A stretch of 51,073 bases of DNA from Candidatus Firestoneibacteriota bacterium (lineage in GTDB: Bacteria > Oederibacteriota > D2-FULL-39-29 > JBDRBU01): positions 1-51,073 of the forward strand of contig JBDRBU010000050.1 of the NCBI GenBank assembly GCA_043822305.1, written 5' to 3'. Numbering within the stretch: position 1 is the stretch's first letter; each line of letters starts with the position of its first letter. This document shows, one piece after another, positions 12,001 to 27,000 of the stretch. The position numbers were made by a program.

Positions 12001-15000
12001 ATGCAGGATAAAAATACGGATGTACTTCAGATTCACATACAAATTTTGGGGTTACCTCTTTACTTATTATCTGATTCCAATATTCCTTGAATTTCTTTTT
12101 AATTATTCCTTGTAAATACAAACTACGGCCATGAACTCTACCCTTAAACTTTAAAACTCCAATATTTTTAGGATATTCCATGGCCAATTTTGTACATTCT
12201 AATGCTTTATCATATTCTCCTGCTTCAATTAATAATTCTGCTTTACTATTATAAGCGTCTTCATAAATCTGCCGTGATAAATATTCTATTTCCCATGGAT
12301 AAAACTGTTTATCTTTTATAAATTCAATTGCCTGATCATATTCTTTTAAATCTATATATAATTTTGCCTTTCTTTCCATAGCCTTAGGATGTTCTAATAC
12401 TTTATTTGTTATTTTAGATGCAATTCTTTTTCTAATATTTAAATATCCATATGCTGCTAAAAATCTATCTGCTTCATAATAAACTTCCCAATTATTTGAA
12501 TCAAGTTTAATTGCTTTTTCATACTCTTCCGCCATTTTACAATGGTTTAATTTTGCTCTCAAATGACCAAGTGCAATATTCCTGTATACAGTAGAATTAT
12601 TTGAACCTAATTTCCTGGCCAGATAAAAATCCCTTAATCCTTCCTCGTATCTGCATTTGTAAAACATAAAATTACCTAAGTATTCATATGTGTTTGGTAA
12701 ATTTGGAAAGTATTTTATAGCGTTTTTTAATATCTCTACAGATTCAATCTGCCATGGAAAAACTCTTTTACATTTTAACTTTGCACCTAAAAAGTAATTC
12801 TTTTTTGCCTTTTTAATATTTCCAATCTTCTCATAACAGTAACCCAAATAGTAATATATTAAAGGATAATTAGAAAAATCTTTTCTTGCTTTACTTAAAA
12901 CTTTAATTGCTTCATTATATAGTCCACTTTGAATATAATCCATTGCAAGTTCTATAGAATTTTCAGGTATTCTTTTTAGAATCCTATCTAAAATATCTTT
13001 ATACTTTTTATTATTATTTATCAAACAATGCTCAAATAAAATTAACCCATCTATTGGTTCTTTTACAATGAAATTGTTTATTATCTTCCTTGCTTCATTT
13101 GTCTTTCCACATTTCCTTAATGCAGCAGTATAAAGACCCACTATCTTTGGATTATTTGAATCTCTTGAATATGTTTTCTTAAACAAATCTACTGCTTTAT
13201 TATAATTTTTCTCAATTAATGCAATCTTACCTAATTCAACAAAAGATGCGGGTGCAATATAACTCTTATCTAAACTTGATTTCCAAAAACATTCTTTTGC
13301 TTTTAATAATTTCCCCTGTCCCTTGTAATTTAGTCCTAAAAAATAGTAAACATCCAAATCATAATTACTACATTTTAATACTCTTAAAAACTTTTCTTCT
13401 GCTTCACTAAATAAACCTCTCATTAGAGCAATAATTCCTAATCTTAAAATTGCTGGTGAATATCCTGGATTCTTTTCCAATACGGCTAAATACTTCTTTC
13501 CTGCCTTTCCAATTAATCTTTGTTTCTCTAATTCTAATCCTTGAAAGTATAATTTTTCTACTGTATTTTTAATGTTTTTACTTTTTGTTTCTTTCTCTGA
13601 TTCATAATAACTTATCTTTGATAAAATCCGTTCATACTTAGCTAAAAAAATATTATTATTAACTATCTTAAAGGAAATCTTATCATTAGGATTAGCATTA
13701 GGAAGAGAGGCAGAATCAAAAAAAGTCACTTCTGGTTTTAAAGATACCCTTTTTTTATAAATAACCTTACCATTAATAGTAAGTATTATTTTTGAATCCA
13801 AAAATTTTTTTGTTGAATTAATATAGAACTTAATCATATTATCATTATGTTTCAGATTTAATATTATATCTGTATTTGCATACATAAAACTTTTTGTACC
13901 TCTTACAGGAATCCAATATCCTTTCCAGATATTTGAAGCATATGGATTCATAAACTCAAAATTAGCCTGTGTCATGAACGAACCACATTGAAACTCAGTA
14001 TAGAGAGGCATATCATCTGTTAAAAAATCTCTCCACATTAAACCAAAATCAGAAGTTCCCCATGTAAAAAACTTCTTTCCTGATTCTTCAAATCTATTTG
14101 AATAATGGGCTACACCAAAATCATAATCTTCATTATAATATCCAAAAAAATTTTCCTTACACTTATGAGCAAAAATCTCTTCAATATTTGCAAAATTCTT
14201 ATAATAACTTAAATCTACTCCTTTATTATCAACAGGGAAATTTCTTGTAATTCCAATACCTGTCACTTTATTAGCCGGAAAAATTACTCTTAAACCATCT
14301 GTGGCATCCGCTGCTGCATTTGTCCAGAAATAATACCTTTCTGGCAGATTCGTCCTATTATGAAGTTTAACTGTTATTTCAATATAAGCAATACCTGGAT
14401 ATAATTTTATAAAAACAGACCATCTCATTCTTGTAGATAATTCAATATTACCTACAACAATAGTAGCACTACCATTTTTTTCAGTATAATAATGATAATC
14501 AATTGTTTTAAAAGAAGTAATAGAATGTCCTATTGGAAAGTTAAACTCTACACCGCAGGCTATCCAACTTCCTGAAAGCTGAACCATAGCAGGTTTTATA
14601 ACGGGATTTTTATAAAACATATCTTTACCACTTATTTTGTCTAAAGCAGAATAAATTCTTCCACCTCTTTCCGGTAAAATAATTAATTTTAAATATTTAT
14701 TTTCTAAAAAGATTGCTTTATATAAATAGTTCTTTTTTACATCTTTTAAATGCAAATTTCTTACATAAGGGTATACTCTTAAATTACCTTCTAATGTTAA
14801 GTCTGGATTTTTATTTTCTTCTCCAACTTCATAAGTTGGTATGTTTATCTTCTCTTCCCATACTTTTACTTTCATATCTTACCTTTAATGTAGTTGCCCA
14901 GCGCTACAAAAATAGGATCTGCCCTATTTTACATCATAATTATAGTAATTTTATACCAAAAAGGCAAGTGTTTTCGACTGGATTTAATTTCGAGGCTCAT

Positions 15001-24000: not shown

Positions 24001-27000
24001 ACCAATAAGTAAGTTGTTAAAACCATCAAAGATTTTCTCTGGGGCGACTATATTAGGAAATGGTGAGGTTGTTTTAATATTAGACATAAACAACATTATA
24101 ACGAAAGGAGGAGAACAGTGGCCATAAATATTGGTAAAAAAATATTAACAATGATCTTGATAAGTATAGTTCTAACCGCTCTGACGATGTTCGGCTCTTT
24201 TTATTTTTATAACCAGTCAATATCTGACAATATCAAAATCATAAAAAATGCAAATTCTTCACTTGTAATTTTTAAAGATATTGAGTTAAAATTACAATTA
24301 TATAAAACACGCAAAGATATAAAACTAATAAATGCTTCTAAAATAAACATAGATAAGTTTATAGAAGATTTGTCTAATAGAAGCGATAAAATTCAACAAA
24401 GTAGAAATCCTGAACTTATGACAAACATTGAGGAAGTAATATTAAGGTCCAAGGAAATTCAAATGAATATAGATACTTTACAAAAAGGGGTTAATGAATT
24501 ATCTCTTACAAAATCTTTATCTGTCTTAGAAAGTATAGAACCAAAATTACATTCTTTAATCTTCTTCGAAGAAAAAAAATTTGATAAAGAAATTGTTATT
24601 ATCAGAATTTTTATACTTGGAGCAACAATTTTAATTGCATTAATTATACTAACTTTTTCCTTGCGGATCTCACAAAGTGTTGTGACTCCAATTCATAAAC
24701 TAATATCTGTAGCCATATCTTCTTCAAAAGGGGATTTAACTCAAAGCATAAAAGTTGGCTCAAAAGATGAAATGGGTGCCTTAGCCAATGCATTTAATAC
24801 ATTAGTAGAAAATCTAACCAAAATTTTAACCCAGTTAAAGAATACTTCTGAATTAATTTCAAAATATTCGGGAGAATTTGCTGCCTTATCCGAGAATTTA
24901 AATTCATCAGCAACAAACATTACAAATTCTGTATCTGGAATTGCCAGGGGTGCTTATATTCAAACAAAACAGATTGAAAAAACTTCACAAGTGATTGAAC
25001 AAATGTTAACATCTGTAGACAGAGTAGCCACCAGAACTCAAATACAGGATGAAAAAACCAACTTAGCCGCATCAATCTCAAAGAAAGGCAGCGATTTAAT
25101 AAGAGAAACGATAAACAAAATGAACCAGATTAATATTTCTGTAAATAACTCAGCCAATATAGCCAGAAAATTAAAAGAAAGATCTACCCATGTAGGTCAA
25201 ATTGTAGAAGTCATTACAAAGATTGCTGAGCAAACCAATTTACTGGCTATTAATACGGCCATAGAAGCAGCCCGAGCCGGTGAAGGTGCACAAGAATTTA
25301 GAGTCATAGCCGATGAAGTAAGAAAACTTGCTGAAGCAACCGGTAAAGCTACTGAACAAATCATAAAACTACTTAAAGAAATACAAAATGAAACTAATGA
25401 AGCCATCTCGGCCACAGAAGGTGGTTTAAAAGAAGTTCAAGCTGGTGTAGTTTACATAAATAAAACAGGAAGTGCTCTTGAAGAATTATCATCTGCCGTC
25501 TTAGACATAAGTAACTTATCCTCGGAGATTTCCAAAAACACCAAGGAACAATCAAGTAGTTGTGAATTGGTTAGAAAGGCAATTTCTGCTATTGCAAAAA
25601 TATCAGAAGAAAATGCAAAGTCAACTGATGATGTTTTAAATTTAGCCCAAAGTCAGGCAGATTTAACAAAGAAAATTTTTGGGTCATCTACAGAATTGAA
25701 AAAATTGTCTGTTGAATTAGTAGACATTGCCAAAAAATTTAAAGTTGCGAAGCAGGAAAACAAATGAAAAAACATTTGGAACTAACTGAAATTCAAAGAG
25801 ATGCATTAAAAGAAATTGCAAGTATTGGCATAAGTCACTCGGCCACTGCCTTGTCAAAAATGATTAACAAGAAAGTAATGATTGATGTGCCGAAAGTAAA
25901 TATATTATCAATAAATAAATTAGCAGATGTACTCACCACTTCTAATGAACTAATTGTAGGAATATATTTTAAAGTATTAGGTAAAGTATCTGGCAAGGTT
26001 TTACTTTCGTTTAAAAAAGAAAGTGCTTTAGTCCTGGCAGATATTTTAATGAAAAAATCTGTTGGGGAAACAAAAATACTTGCTGAAATGGAACAATCTG
26101 CCTTAAAAGAATTAGGAGCAATATCAACTGCGGTTTGTTTAAATGCCTTAGCCGAATTTCTTGGAATGGTACTACTTCCATCTATTCCCCACTTTATGTA
26201 CGATTATTCAGATTCCATAGTAAAATCATTGTTTGATGAAGTAAAGTCAGACACAGAATATGTAGTTGTAGTTGATTCTGAATTCAAAGAATCTAACAAC
26301 AAAATTCTTGGAAGGTTTTTAATATTTCCAAACGAAGATGCCTTTGAATCAATCTGGCACGCCCTTAAAATAAACAGGGACAGACACCCTATTTTTTTAA
26401 TGTAGTTGCCCAATTTATTGGGGCGCCATATACTCTATCAAACCACTCTTTATCAAGTAAAAAATTATTTGTGTTCATTTTTTATTTGGATATTACTTCC
26501 CAATATCCGCTCTTGTCAGAACCTATCCTTCTAATAACTCCTTTTTCTTTTAACTGTGAAATATATTTTTTTGTATTCCTTAAGTTAATCCCTAATTCTT
26601 TGGATAATTCTTGAGTCGTTGTTTTGGGGTTCTTTAACAATATATCTACAATAAATCTCTCTCTTTCTCCAAGAAATTTTACAGTGTCCTTTACAGTGTC
26701 CTTACCCATTAACTTTTTTCTCTTAAACACAGCAATAAATTGTCTTCCGATTTCTTCAAATTCGGCCGAGGGTTCTCTTTCAAGAATTAGTTTGATACCC
26801 CTTCCCCATTTTTCAACAAAATGAACACGGTGGAACAACTCGGCAATAAGTTCATTTCGCCTTTCTGACAACTTTCCTTTTCTGATTTTTGCAATAGTTA
26901 GACCTCCATACAAAAGACCAGGACTTCTAATCTCAAGTCGGTCCTTAAAGATTGCAATATTTACAGAATCGTAGTTATAGTAATCCCTGTGGCAAAAAGC

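Follow-up and report, generated by a model that had tools for sequence, protein, structure and literature searches.

Results and Discussion

Gene content of the locus

The window, a stretch of 51,073 nucleotides on contig C50 of the genome G000, carries an ORF for a 689-aa protein that is flanked by the genes of an ExeA-like ATPase and of a 1198-aa coiled-coil protein and is divergent from cheW-cheY-cheA-mcp-cheC. All ORFs of this locus are intact, and those of the fusion, its flanking genes and the che genes lie where the earlier note on this DNA had placed them (14984-26405). The following features were assigned:

14984..18580, minus strand: coiled-coil protein, 1198 aa, begins 14 nt past the fusion gene (without a match in Pfam or NCBIfam)
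18595..20664, minus strand: FliF(RBM3)-TM-FliG(M+C)-TPR fusion, 689 aa, P0001 (Pfam, AF2, Foldseek, profile comparisons)
18616..18867, minus strand: C-terminal cytoplasmic TPR, residues 600-683 (Pfam TPR_1/TPR_2, 606-673; AF2 pLDDT 85-94)
19171..19494, minus strand: FliG C-terminal domain with torque helix, residues 391-498 (Pfam FliG_C, residue mapping)
19570..19773, minus strand: FliG middle domain, residues 298-365 (Pfam FliG_M, profile, residue mapping)
20020..20118, minus strand: TM helix, residues 183-215, with conserved FLFGPVR motif (AF2)
20155..20577, minus strand: periplasmic FliF RBM3-like domain, residues ~30-170 (AF2 H-E-E-H-E, Foldseek, PF08345, hhalign)
20702..21535, minus strand: ExeA-like P-loop ATPase, 277 aa, opening the rotor operon (Pfam AAA_22, 1.3e-20)
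21574..21602, minus strand: predicted sigma-70-like promoter TTGACA-17-TATACT (11/12 positions match; top of the scanned region)
21767..22204, plus strand: cheW (Pfam CheW, 3.4e-24; real start perhaps downstream of TTG 21767)
22226..22588, plus strand: cheY, single receiver domain, 120 aa (Pfam Response_reg, 2.1e-26)
22589..24127, plus strand: cheA, 512 aa, with Hpt, dimerisation (H-kinase_dim), HATPase_c and CheW domains (Pfam)
24118..25767, plus strand: mcp, HAMP and MCPsignal (Pfam)
25764..26405, plus strand: cheC-type CheY-P phosphatase, 213 aa (Pfam CheC, 4.3e-13)

The predicted promoter precedes the ATPase gene by 39 nt, between the two divergent gene groups, and has to be read as a consensus match only, because promoter-like sites are barely more frequent overall (95) than in shuffles (79.8 ± 8.8). 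As claimed before, the genome (96.8% complete) is without a flagellum, and genes for the export gate, C-ring, rod and filament are missing: FHIPEP (FlhA), FliM, Flg_bb_rod, YscJ_FliF and Flagellin_N gave no matches in it, and FHIPEP gave none in the 13 genomes of the class.

A fusion of FliF and FliG domains

From its N-terminus the 689-aa protein consists of a signal or first membrane segment, a periplasmic domain like RBM3 of FliF, a TM helix, a Gly-rich linker, the M and C domains of FliG and a TPR; the earlier division into FliF ring motif, TM helix, FliG M+C and TPR held up in our tests. AF2 modelling with 16 homologues again gave a helix at 30-59, strands at 64-83 and 114-135, a helix at 142-153 and a strand at 160-167, followed by helices at 183-215, the FliG helices at 293-492 and the TPR at 600-683. 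The pLDDT of the whole model is 63.6, which counts against reading the protein as a rotor; within the Gly-rich disordered linker that follows the TM helix (residues 216-285) it is under 50 at 218-271. The homologue alignment shows L199 of the TM region as invariant and G201 and P202 as nearly so, and W637, Q638, Q641, G644, Y660 and W676 as invariant in the TPR.

Both FliG domains predicted by the earlier note were recovered by Pfam (FliG_C at 391-498, E 2.7e-25; FliG_M at 298-365, E 1.1e-10). Foldseek matched the protein to PDB entry 1lkv (E 3.9e-10), and comparison of the family profile with this T. maritima FliG MC fragment gave E 1.6e-61. What is lost is the FliM-binding motif, with EPPE in place of the EHPQ of E. 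coli FliG and alanine for the arginine of EHPQR, while the protein retains the hinges together with one acidic residue of the torque helix. The Gly-Gly pair (E. coli 194-195) is present in 29 of 29 family members and F236 of MFxF in 28 of 29. Of the torque-helix residues, E463 never varies, its position (D288 in E. coli) being glutamic acid in 29/29, and E464 (D289) is retained; the positions of R281, R297 and K264 hold G, T and T. Only one or two of the five classical charges are thus kept (R281 is replaced by G and R297 by T in 28/29 each), which speaks against a rotor.

On the FliF side, the ring-building motif described earlier is of FliF type, but it is not generic and corresponds to RBM3. 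The only FliF chains found by Foldseek were those of RBM3 or the S-ring (7bk0_B, 3.8e-6; 8z4d_1, TM(target) 0.59; 6sd1_A, RBM3/collar), the RBM3 chains having E values of ~4e-6 to 3e-5, and a low-confidence insertion at residues 82-117 sits where FliF has its beta-collar. The FliF match had been called weak, and this holds for the window protein alone (PF08345, YscJ_FliF_C, E 0.069) but not for the family, where PF08345 is found in 7 of 16 close homologues (best 9.1e-10) and in 23 of 45 further relatives (best 5.6e-36) and where hhalign aligns profile columns 125-175 with residues 373-432 of E. coli FliF (probability 74%, E 2.8e-5). The list of 25 families for the 45 further relatives does not include PF01514. 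In this protein a ring domain of FliF RBM3 type and the M and C domains of FliG, with a single TM helix between them, are naturally fused. A covalent Gly-rich linker stands in place of FliG_N and the FliF tail, and a cytoplasmic C-terminal TPR is added.

Relatives and the MotA/MotB stator

The 18 proteins of the fusion's length class were found again, but the family is wider than the 16 loci reported before, 31 loci having been found; an Ignavibacteria locus, also claimed, was not seen among them. We could confirm FliG_C in 76 of the 99 genomes of the phylum, mostly in proteins of 332-345 aa. This distribution of largely canonical FliG, the class without FHIPEP and the scattering of the parts in G000 over four contigs (C50, C110, C12 and C121), which also counts against a joint machine, would fit leftovers of a lost flagellum under relaxed selection and without joint function. 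We regard this already disfavoured explanation as very improbable. The 31 loci and the 50 clusters formed at 50% identity all keep the fused architecture, 16 homologues share 44 invariant columns, the ORFs are all intact, the modules are gained and lost together within the class, and the TPR, the coiled coil and a dedicated ATPase (82% identity) are specific additions. Moreover, genome G074 of the same phylum combines a FliG of canonical length (343 aa) with two fused systems that have MotAB of their own, so that the fused system is a paralogous machine rather than a flagellum in decay.

MotA (268 aa) and MotB (plug and OmpA domains) were verified on contig C110 of G000. The statement that MotAB is not adjacent is correct for this genome but not for most of the 31 related loci, mostly Elusimicrobia, where MotA lies within the fetched flank of 23, 22 of them with MotB as well. 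All four MotA/MotB pairs tested with Pfam were confirmed, three of them with a MotB having plug and OmpA; L010 has two MotB paralogues, the one with OmpA alone and the other with both domains. MotA and MotB of G000 are 53-70% and 37-58% identical to those of the related loci, MotA retains R90, E98, P173 and P222 and MotB D32 (E. coli numbering), and the stator is of flagellar type and closely related to the MotA/MotB beside the fusion in Elusimicrobia. In the 21 loci with both genes, MotA K90/Q98 pairs with Q or M at the K264 position of FliG (19/19) and R90/E98 with K or R (2/2). The window fusion has T at this position and its MotA retains E98, so this co-variation fails in its lineage.

Within the class, FliG_C is restricted to G000, G013 and G014, in agreement with the earlier note, and so is the ATPase orthologue. 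CheW, MotB_plug and an orthologue of a barrel-TPR protein (at least 38% identity) occur in the same four of 13 genomes, namely these three and G017. FlbD, verified on C121 of G000, is found in G000, G014 and G017. As G013 and G014 belong to one genus and the genomes are related, this pattern reflects few independent events. G017 stands as a counter-example to a rotor, since this genome (90% complete) has MotAB, FlbD, Che and the barrel-TPR and yielded no rotor gene with Pfam FliG_C or a protein query. With MotA in 23/31 loci and CheW, MotB_plug and barrel-TPR co-occurring, the proposal that rotor-like, stator and che parts belong together is upheld and strengthened.

Neighbouring genes and the Che cluster

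The ATPase scores 200 bits against NCBIfam TIGR03015 (XrtA-associated ATPase), under the cut-off of 324.5. Its orthologues (81-82% identity) are found in the class only in G013 and G014, at the same position, and paralogues of at most 44% identity in all 13 genomes; it is a dedicated paralogue in the rotor operon. The 1198-aa protein has a proline-rich N-terminus (LPPVPP), an internal duplication (633-690/760-817, spacing 127 residues) and a C-terminal hydrophobic tail (FFLWLWYPNEPRN). Over the first ~390 residues it shares 43% identity with its counterparts in L002 and L055, and a coiled-coil-rich ORF follows the fusion ORF in 25 of 28 cases.

The che genes form the only Che cluster of G000, which has two CheW domains in all, one of them in cheW, and their synteny with the ATPase-rotor-coiled coil genes is kept in G013 and G014. 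CheY is 67-75% identical in G013, G014 and G017; the cheC product, a relative of the FliM/FliY middle domain, reaches 126 bits with NCBIfam CheC_Thtogales (cut-off 250). Counting against a rotor, G000 has alternative Che targets in 10 T2SSE-family ATPases and the ExeA-like paralogues. Che-like pathways control type IV pili in other bacteria, and with these T2SSE-family ATPases in the genome and an ExeA/GspA-type AAA_22 ATPase heading the operon, Che and operon might work for type IV pili or for a system resembling type II secretion. ATPase, TPR and coiled coil would then be a polar or assembly scaffold, comparable to ExeA/MshM-MshN or to polar organisers of coiled-coil type, while the FliG-like domains would be a borrowed protein-binding module and MotAB unrelated. 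We consider this unlikely: each of the 13 class genomes has type II/IV (T2SSE) ATPases but only 4 have CheW, exactly those with MotB_plug, the Elusimicrobia fusion clusters have MotAB and no ExeA-like gene (the ExeA query matched 1 of 39 loci), and the window holds no pilus gene.

The upstream protein of ~540 aa, described earlier as FliG-like, is a FliF-FliG paralogue only in G013 and G014 (L002, L055): the counterparts in all seven other loci tested with Pfam have TPRs without a FliG domain, and six match UPF0164 (outer-membrane barrel). In Elusimicrobia this neighbour is a PorV-like barrel-TPR. A PorV-family barrel with periplasmic TPR directly upstream of the fusion would also suit a non-rotating platform, in which a static FliF-FliG ring docks MotAB and ion-driven work crosses the periplasm to the barrel, in a manner likened to TonB and Tol-Pal. 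Instead of movement, this work would power the secretion, attachment or release of surface proteins of T9SS type, and Che input would tune secretion or adhesion. In its favour, the G000 barrel-TPR orthologue exceeds the NCBIfam PorV_fam cut-off of 90 with 101.8 bits and matches ORFs in 27/31 loci, the giant neighbours have in common a C-terminal domain of ~100 aa that gives FlgD_ig/Por_Secre_tail-like matches, and L029 and L036 contain CHU_C T9SS signal proteins. CheW is found in only 2 of the 14 Elusimicrobia genomes carrying the fused system (none of which has FHIPEP), leaving 12 without it, which also suits the platform; Che control is therefore lineage-specific and outside the core machine. 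A static dock is nevertheless hard to reconcile with the conserved Gly-Gly and MFxF hinges (direction switching) and torque-helix acid. SprA-like translocon matches (under cut-off) occur in 13/13 class genomes, rotor or not, so that secretion as such is independent of the rotor module, and single-domain CheY and CheC are usual parts of motility pathways. Such a platform is possible but rather unlikely.

Conclusion

In summary we favour, with a probability of roughly 0.55, that the 689-aa protein serves as rotor in an envelope machine which is driven by MotAB, is not a flagellum and is steered here by Che. Copies of the RBM3 domain would form a membrane ring, and the FliG_C torque helices would be pushed by peptidoglycan-anchored MotA5B2 units across a reduced charge interface, presumably MotA R91 against FliG E463/E464. 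The ExeA-like ATPase may aid assembly or placement, and the only Che pathway of the genome (MCP-CheW-CheA-CheY-CheC) would steer the motor in this taxonomic order, probably via the FliG hinges. The co-inheritance of PorV-like barrel-TPR and proteins with T9SS-type C-terminal domains suggests handling or movement of outer-membrane surface proteins as output. Our literature searches found no description of a FliF-FliG/MotAB machine, and the fusion together with MotA/MotB in the absence of a flagellum points to an undescribed ion-driven envelope motor, in which the TPR and the giant coiled-coil protein would take the place of the FliM/FliN C-ring as cytoplasmic structure.

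Gene layout of the window

Taking the 689-aa fusion protein together with the MotAB stator of the same genome and the adjoining Che cluster, we read it as the rotor of a non-flagellar envelope machine that is driven by MotAB and steered by Che, and we put the probability of this rotor–stator–Che reading at roughly 0.55. The earlier note had observed a single membrane protein with FliF- and FliG-like parts beside chemotaxis genes in a genome without a flagellum, and this observation is borne out by the ORF coordinates, by Pfam, AF2 and Foldseek, and by the lack of flagellar matches in the genome (G000). 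The genes concerned are laid out as follows; ORFs of loci and contigs are longest-ORF calls throughout and their start positions are approximate.

20702-21535, minus strand: ExeA-like AAA_22 ATPase, 277 aa (ORF call and Pfam)
18595-20664, minus strand: fusion protein, 689 aa, 37 nt 3' of the ATPase gene (Pfam)
14984-18580, minus strand: coiled-coil protein, 1198 aa, 14 nt 3' of the fusion gene
21767-26405, plus strand: cheW, cheY, cheA, MCP gene and cheC, divergent from the ATPase, fusion and coiled-coil genes (Pfam)
22226-22588: cheY

The divergent spacer between the ATPase gene and cheW measures 231 nt and holds the best sigma-70-like site of the 16.5 kb scanned (11/12 positions, 39 nt upstream of the ATPase gene), such sites being common in DNA of 30% G+C. 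The ATPase gives a full-length AAA_22 P-loop match to TIGR03015 (E 4.4e-59, 200 bits, below the family cut-off of 324.5), and no peptidoglycan-binding or membrane part was seen in it by Pfam. A DUF5107 gene with multiple TPRs (1054 aa, 11711-14875, minus strand) was considered as a further operon member and rejected: it is separated from the coiled-coil gene by a gap of 109 nt and is without synteny, different genes coming after the coiled coil in two related loci (L002 and L055). The coiled-coil protein contains a near-exact internal duplication (residues 633-690 and 760-817, 127 residues apart, window 15893-16681), which suggests a recent change in rod length. A complex prediction that paired the TPR of the fusion protein (residues 592-689, with alignment) with residues 1-70 of the coiled-coil protein scored 0.01 (mark 0.32) and yielded no answer. 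The window also holds an ORF of 1199 aa (239-3838, minus strand) that looks secreted, with a hydrophobic N-terminal segment; it belongs to no Pfam family, does not resemble a coiled coil and has nothing to do with the fusion system.

A reduced FliF joined to FliG in one chain

Both the profile and the AF2 model of the fusion protein were built from an alignment of 16 homologues. The model, with a pLDDT of 63.6 as a whole, begins with a hydrophobic helix followed by an H-E-E-H-E domain at residues 30-167, which has a low-confidence insertion at 82-117, and by membrane helices at 183-215; then come a disordered Gly-rich linker (residues 216-285, the modelled Gly-rich stretch being 218-271), the FliG helices and a confident TPR. 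The periplasmic region thus lies between two predicted membrane segments, the hydrophobic N-terminus (H3-21) and the helices 183-215. In Foldseek the FliF block matches RBM3/S-ring/collar chains (7bk0_B at 3.8e-6, 8z4d_1 with a TM(target) of 0.59, 6sd1_A, 8ftf_A and 8zdt_A), the RBM3 chains reaching TM(target) values of 0.5-0.59, and hhalign places profile columns 125-175 on residues 373-432 of E. coli FliF. The Pfam family PF08345 is weak on the fusion protein itself (E 0.069) and is found in 7 of the 16 close homologues (best 9.1e-10) and in 23 of 45 further relatives that were retrieved with residues 1-290 alone (best 5.6e-36). PF01514, which covers RBM1-RBM2 and the SctJ-homology region, was found neither in the fusion protein nor in the genome, and the 25 families listed for the 45 relatives do not include it. 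These domain matches and the lack of PF01514 make the protein a mini-FliF, consisting of membrane segment, RBM3 and TM, to which FliG domains M and C are attached through a flexible linker and a cytoplasmic TPR is added. FliG_N binds FliF's C-terminal tail and normally keeps the two proteins together; both FliG_N and the FliF tail are dispensed with here.

In the cytoplasmic half Pfam finds FliG_M at 298-365 (1.1e-10), FliG_C at 391-498 (2.7e-25) and TPRs at 606-673. The 16-homologue profile aligns with the MC fragment of T. maritima FliG (1lkv) at an E value of 1.6e-61 over columns 289-504, and Foldseek finds FliG at 3.9e-10. A true FliG_N domain was considered and rejected, its weak match (E 0.0063) lying under the cut-off and overlapping the M domain at 312-396. 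With 132.9 bits against a cut-off of 226.7 for the fliG model TIGR00207, the fusion protein is related to FliG but does not belong to the equivalog. A weak match over residues 291-338 (E 5e-5) was also obtained to NCBIfam PRK05934 ('type III secretion system protein'), which we take to be the chlamydial FliF-FliG fusion.

With MAFFT, 29 family members were mapped onto E. coli FliG.

FliG residues in the fusion protein and its family (E. coli residue; fusion protein; 29 family members)
Gly-Gly pair 194-195; kept as G369 and G370; 29/29
F236 of MFxF (MFLF 233-236); kept, IFAF; 28/29
D288; E463; E in 29/29
D289; E464; S 17, E 7 (including the window), A 3, H 1, Q 1
R281; G; G in 28/29
R297; T; T in 28/29
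K264; T; mostly Q
EHPQ (E125, H126, P127, Q128); EPPE; mostly EEPW (first position E/D)
R160 of EHPQR; A; E in 22/29

The Gly-Gly linker and the MFxF hinge have a role in switching, and the EHPQR motif binds FliM. According to this mapping the fusion protein has retained the FliG hinges and one acidic stator contact. The set of five torque-helix charges (K264, R281, D288, D289 and R297) is not kept and reads T, G, E, E and T. Judged by its sequence, the FliM-facing surface of canonical FliG is gone, which fits a genome without a FliM match.

A stator without a flagellum

None of the models FHIPEP, FliM, Flg_bb_rod, YscJ_FliF and Flagellin_N finds a match in G000, which is 96.8% complete, and FHIPEP finds none in the 13 genomes of the class. 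Five MotA_ExbB genes are present in G000, and the flagellar-type pair lies on contig C110: a MotA of 268 aa that has kept R90, E98, P173 and P222, and a MotB of 215 aa with D32, the plug and an OmpA-like domain. Against the NCBIfam MotP/MotA/PomA models this stator scores 217-235 bits, under the equivalog cut-offs of 340-394. The gene of FlbD is located on another contig (C121); in G017, a second genome of the class, flbD lies immediately upstream of motA. In all four stator-bearing genomes of the class (G000, G013, G014 and G017) motB is followed by the gene of a HAMP protein (193 aa in G000). The order motA, motB and HAMP-domain membrane protein (190-198 aa, 46-47% identity) was seen at C110:10039-12155 (locus L057) and in L062, L063 and L064, whereas in the loci from Elusimicrobia no HAMP protein of this kind turned up. 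Just upstream of motA in G000 is a small pair of ORFs resembling a ParE-like toxin and a DUF6290 antitoxin (C110:12208-12721).

Related loci place the proposed rotor beside a stator

A homologue scan with one genome per species gave 39 loci, 8 of them with ORFs of FliG length (332-347 aa). The remaining 31 (L002-L031 and L036), mostly labelled Elusimicrobia or Elusimicrobiota, hold the long form or its fragments; L002 and L054, as well as L005 and L052, have the same ORF maps and each pair was counted once. MotA was found in the fetched flank of 23 of the 31 loci and is 53-70% identical to the MotA of G000, and in 22 of these 23 it is accompanied by a MotB with 37-58% identity; all four loci analyzed with Pfam (L004, L005, L010 and L030) have MotA_ExbB as well as a MotB that carries plug and OmpA. 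The common gene order begins with a giant surface protein and a ~540-aa protein, continues with the fusion and the coiled-coil protein, and ends with MotA and MotB. The neighbour of ~540 aa had been called FliG-like in the earlier note, which is true of L002 and G014 alone, this slot being occupied there by a paralogue of the fusion (482-523 aa) that has no TPR; in the seven other loci tested by Pfam the protein has no FliG domain (0/7), ends in C-terminal TPRs (7/7) and matches the outer-membrane barrel family UPF0164 (6/7). After 25 of 28 fusion ORFs a coiled-coil-rich ORF follows. Most of these begin with a PPLPP-type proline motif, as read from the alignment, and a short tail, hydrophobic or amphipathic, closes many of them, that of the window (FFLWLWYPNEPRN) being nearly identical in L002. 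Elusimicrobia genomes with the system show FHIPEP in 0/14 and CheW in 2/14 cases.

G074, a genome of the same phylum, encodes a FliG of canonical length (343 aa) in addition to two copies of the fused system, each with its own MotA, MotB being detected in one. Both fused clusters of G074 (L052 and L053) also have a PorV-like barrel and a giant protein, and one of its fusions (581 aa) is without a TPR. In a metagenomic protein of 640 aa (P0020) the precomputed Pfam domains are FliG_M, FliM and FliG_C, a possible FliG-FliM fusion.

Residues at the MotA/FliG interface were compared across the 21 loci that hold both genes. At the position of FliG K264, loci with K90/Q98 in MotA have Q (18) or M (1), and those with R90/E98 have K or R (2/2). 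The flagellar contact pairs described in PMC12505986 are MotA R90 with FliG D288-D289 and MotA E98 with FliG R281; in most loci the loss of R281, whose usual partner is E98 according to this source, is thus accompanied by the loss of E98. The pair of a basic MotA-90 and an acidic FliG-288 is universal in the 21 loci. Such co-variation is the pattern that direct contact would give, but the loci are related and the events few, and the window's own pair breaks the rule, with R/E in MotA and T in FliG.

Chemotaxis link and outer-membrane part

Both CheW domains of G000 lie in the window and none elsewhere in the genome. A convincing CheR was not found in G000, the weak match on contig C89 scoring 25.6 bits. 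The divergent layout, with the che genes on one side and the ATPase, a fusion paralogue, the fusion-TPR protein and the coiled coil on the other, is shared with G013 and G014.

Phyletic pattern in the 13 genomes of the class
CheW: G000, G013, G014, G017
MotB_plug: G000, G013, G014, G017
Barrel-TPR orthologue, full length, 38-56% identity: G000, G013, G014, G017
FlbD: G000, G014, G017
Fusion gene: G000, G013, G014
ExeA-like ATPase orthologue, 81-82% identity: G000, G013, G014
T2SSE ATPases: 13/13
SprA-like ORF, below cut-off: 13/13

This pattern and the kept layout indicate that the Che genes travel with the stator and the outer-membrane part and not with pili, in a sample in which G013 and G014 form one genus, the relatives are not independent and several genomes are 80-90% complete. 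No rotor gene was found in G017 (90% complete) by Pfam FliG_C or by a protein query with residues 1-495, and the ORFs flanking its che cluster, MotAB and barrel-TPR (L061, L062 and L065) showed no match to the fusion, ATPase or coiled-coil proteins.

The outer-membrane part, the barrel-TPR, sits in a second conserved module on contig C12 (C12:17784-27746; L056 3784-13746), which starts with a 7TM-PAS histidine kinase and an RR-GAF-HK hybrid kinase and continues with the PorV-family barrel with TPR (489 aa), a TPR-HEAT protein (413 aa) and a Kelch/fn3 protein of 1138 aa with a C-terminus resembling FlgD_ig and T9SS tails. The barrel (C12:21535-23004) scores 101.8 bits on NF033709 (PorV_fam), over the cut-off of 90. 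The trio of barrel-TPR, TPR-HEAT and Kelch/fn3 proteins is common to G000, G013 and G014, the preceding hybrid kinase is present in G000 and G014, and G017 has the barrel-TPR and TPR-HEAT genes. TIGR04189 (SprA/Sov) matches several stretches of an ORF of ~1720-1815 aa in 13/13 genomes, all under the 200-bit cut-off; this ORF (~1720 aa at C83:~7343-10291 in G000) is found in the class regardless of the rotor and stator set. At two further places in G000 (C41:7614-14929 and C123:29683-31267) a PorV/UPF0164-like barrel adjoins a protein, on C41 a giant of 2031 aa, with the same C-terminal domain of ~100 aa; in L005 and L020 the giants encoded upstream of the rotor clusters have C-termini that share 37-45% identity with this domain.

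Proposed mechanism and significance

Domain make-up, topology signals, stator features, gene neighbourhoods and phyletic pattern are direct observations, and the interpretation of the earlier note is supported by them with corrections. A more specific version, tentative and in our estimate rather unlikely, would have a ring of RBM3-FliG chains turned by MotAB, switched by CheY-P and coupled through the periplasm to the PorV-like barrel-TPR, which would hold giant surface adhesins, all without ever building a flagellum. In the main reading, the RBM3 domains would build a ring in the inner membrane, and MotA5B2, anchored to peptidoglycan, would push the torque helices of FliG_C via a reduced charge interface. 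In place of FliM/FliN, a cytoplasmic structure may be formed by the TPR and the long coiled coil with its conserved ends, and the dedicated ATPase may aid assembly or placement. CheY-P, with CheC as the phosphatase, would then act on this structure through the retained FliG hinges. In the periplasm, the ring might meet the TPR of the PorV-like barrel and so act on giant surface proteins, a step we consider the weakest.

A long coiled coil together with a MotAB stator also calls to mind Zorya, in which a MotAB-type unit carries a long coiled-coil tail. Here the coiled coil is a separate protein and has no MotA domain, and a Zorya-like reading was set aside on this ground. With this window the system is found in a second lineage, in which its genes are dispersed and tied to chemotaxis in a way that the other carriers do not show.

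To our knowledge the FliG-MotA torque interface is known only inside flagella, apart from the uncharacterised chlamydial FliF-FliG fusion. A conserved module of only RBM3 ring, FliG M+C and MotAB shows that the torque core is a separable unit, and its presence in genomes without export gate, rod or filament, and in at least one genome alongside a FliG of canonical length, bears directly on the origin or reuse of the flagellar motor. The pairing, in this order, of the rotor operon with the only chemotaxis cluster of the genome provides a first regulatory handle, and this pairing, together with the inheritance of the Che genes alongside stator and outer-membrane part, speaks for an output that resembles behaviour. 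If the more specific version with the PorV-like barrel-TPR holds, the flagellar torque core would underlie a new kind of surface motility in bacteria, or a machine for handling adhesins, which would be either an exaptation or the survivor of a pre-flagellar motor.

Comparison with known systems

In open-access text and bioRxiv we found no description of a natural non-flagellar FliF-FliG/MotAB system besides the chlamydial fusion. With the ATPases associated with ExeA/GspA, MshM and XrtA/PEP-CTERM the ATPase of the window shares the AAA_22 P-loop fold; unlike these, it is a dedicated paralogue travelling with the rotor gene. The T9SS/gliding machinery of Bacteroidetes (GldLM, PorV and SprB; PMC8986121) likewise combines an ion-driven inner-membrane motor with a PorV-family barrel and giant surface proteins with a C-terminal sorting domain, in carriers that are often without Che genes. 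Its motor, in contrast, is GldL/GldM, a 5:2 unit of the TolQ/ExbB type with a periplasmic shaft, and is not known to include FliF, FliG or MotB-plug proteins.

Closer in architecture is the natural FliF-FliG fusion of Chlamydiaceae (Bergeron 2016, PeerJ, PMC4768692), reported there as a protein of ~330 aa with an RBM2-like domain, one more RBM and a FliG_M-like end only, which occurs alongside FlhA and an injectisome, was proposed to meet SctQ and is of unknown function according to that paper. Both are natural single chains, found in bacteria that are considered to have no flagella, and both combine two membrane segments and a periplasmic region of reduced length with a cytoplasmic end like FliG, as far as the chlamydial protein is described (PMC4768692). 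The window protein differs from that description in having RBM3, FliG M+C, a TPR and 689 aa, in the lack of FlhA and in its tie to MotAB. Engineered fusions have been reported as well: those of Salmonella (Francis 1992 and Thomas 2001, both cited in PMC4768692) assemble rings and support rotation, and that of Vibrio (PMC11481574) indicates that a covalent chain can assemble rings. They join full-length FliF to full-length FliG in a complete flagellum, unlike the window protein.

The closest known system is the flagellar motor's core, that is the FliF MS-ring with its RBM3/S-ring, FliG and MotA5B2. Shared with it are the RBM3-type ring domain, the TM helix, FliG M+C, in which both hinges (Gly-Gly and MFxF) and an acidic residue of the torque helix are kept, and in the stator R90, E98, P173 and P222 of MotA and D32, the plug and the OmpA-like domain of MotB. 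In contrast to flagellar FliF and FliG, the fusion protein is without RBM1/RBM2 (PF01514), FliG_N and EHPQR, and three of the five torque-helix charges are lost. The flagellar FliF ring, a ~34-mer, houses the type III export gate, whereas FHIPEP is absent here from G000 and from all 13 genomes of the class, and FliM/FliN, FlhA, rod, hook and filament are lacking in G000 as judged with the models FHIPEP, FliM, Flg_bb_rod, YscJ_FliF and Flagellin_N. Compared with the flagellar motor, FliF and FliG are united in one chain, and a TPR, a giant coiled coil and an ExeA-like ATPase are added. By several defining features the fusion protein thus falls outside both FliG and FliF, and it plausibly works like them.
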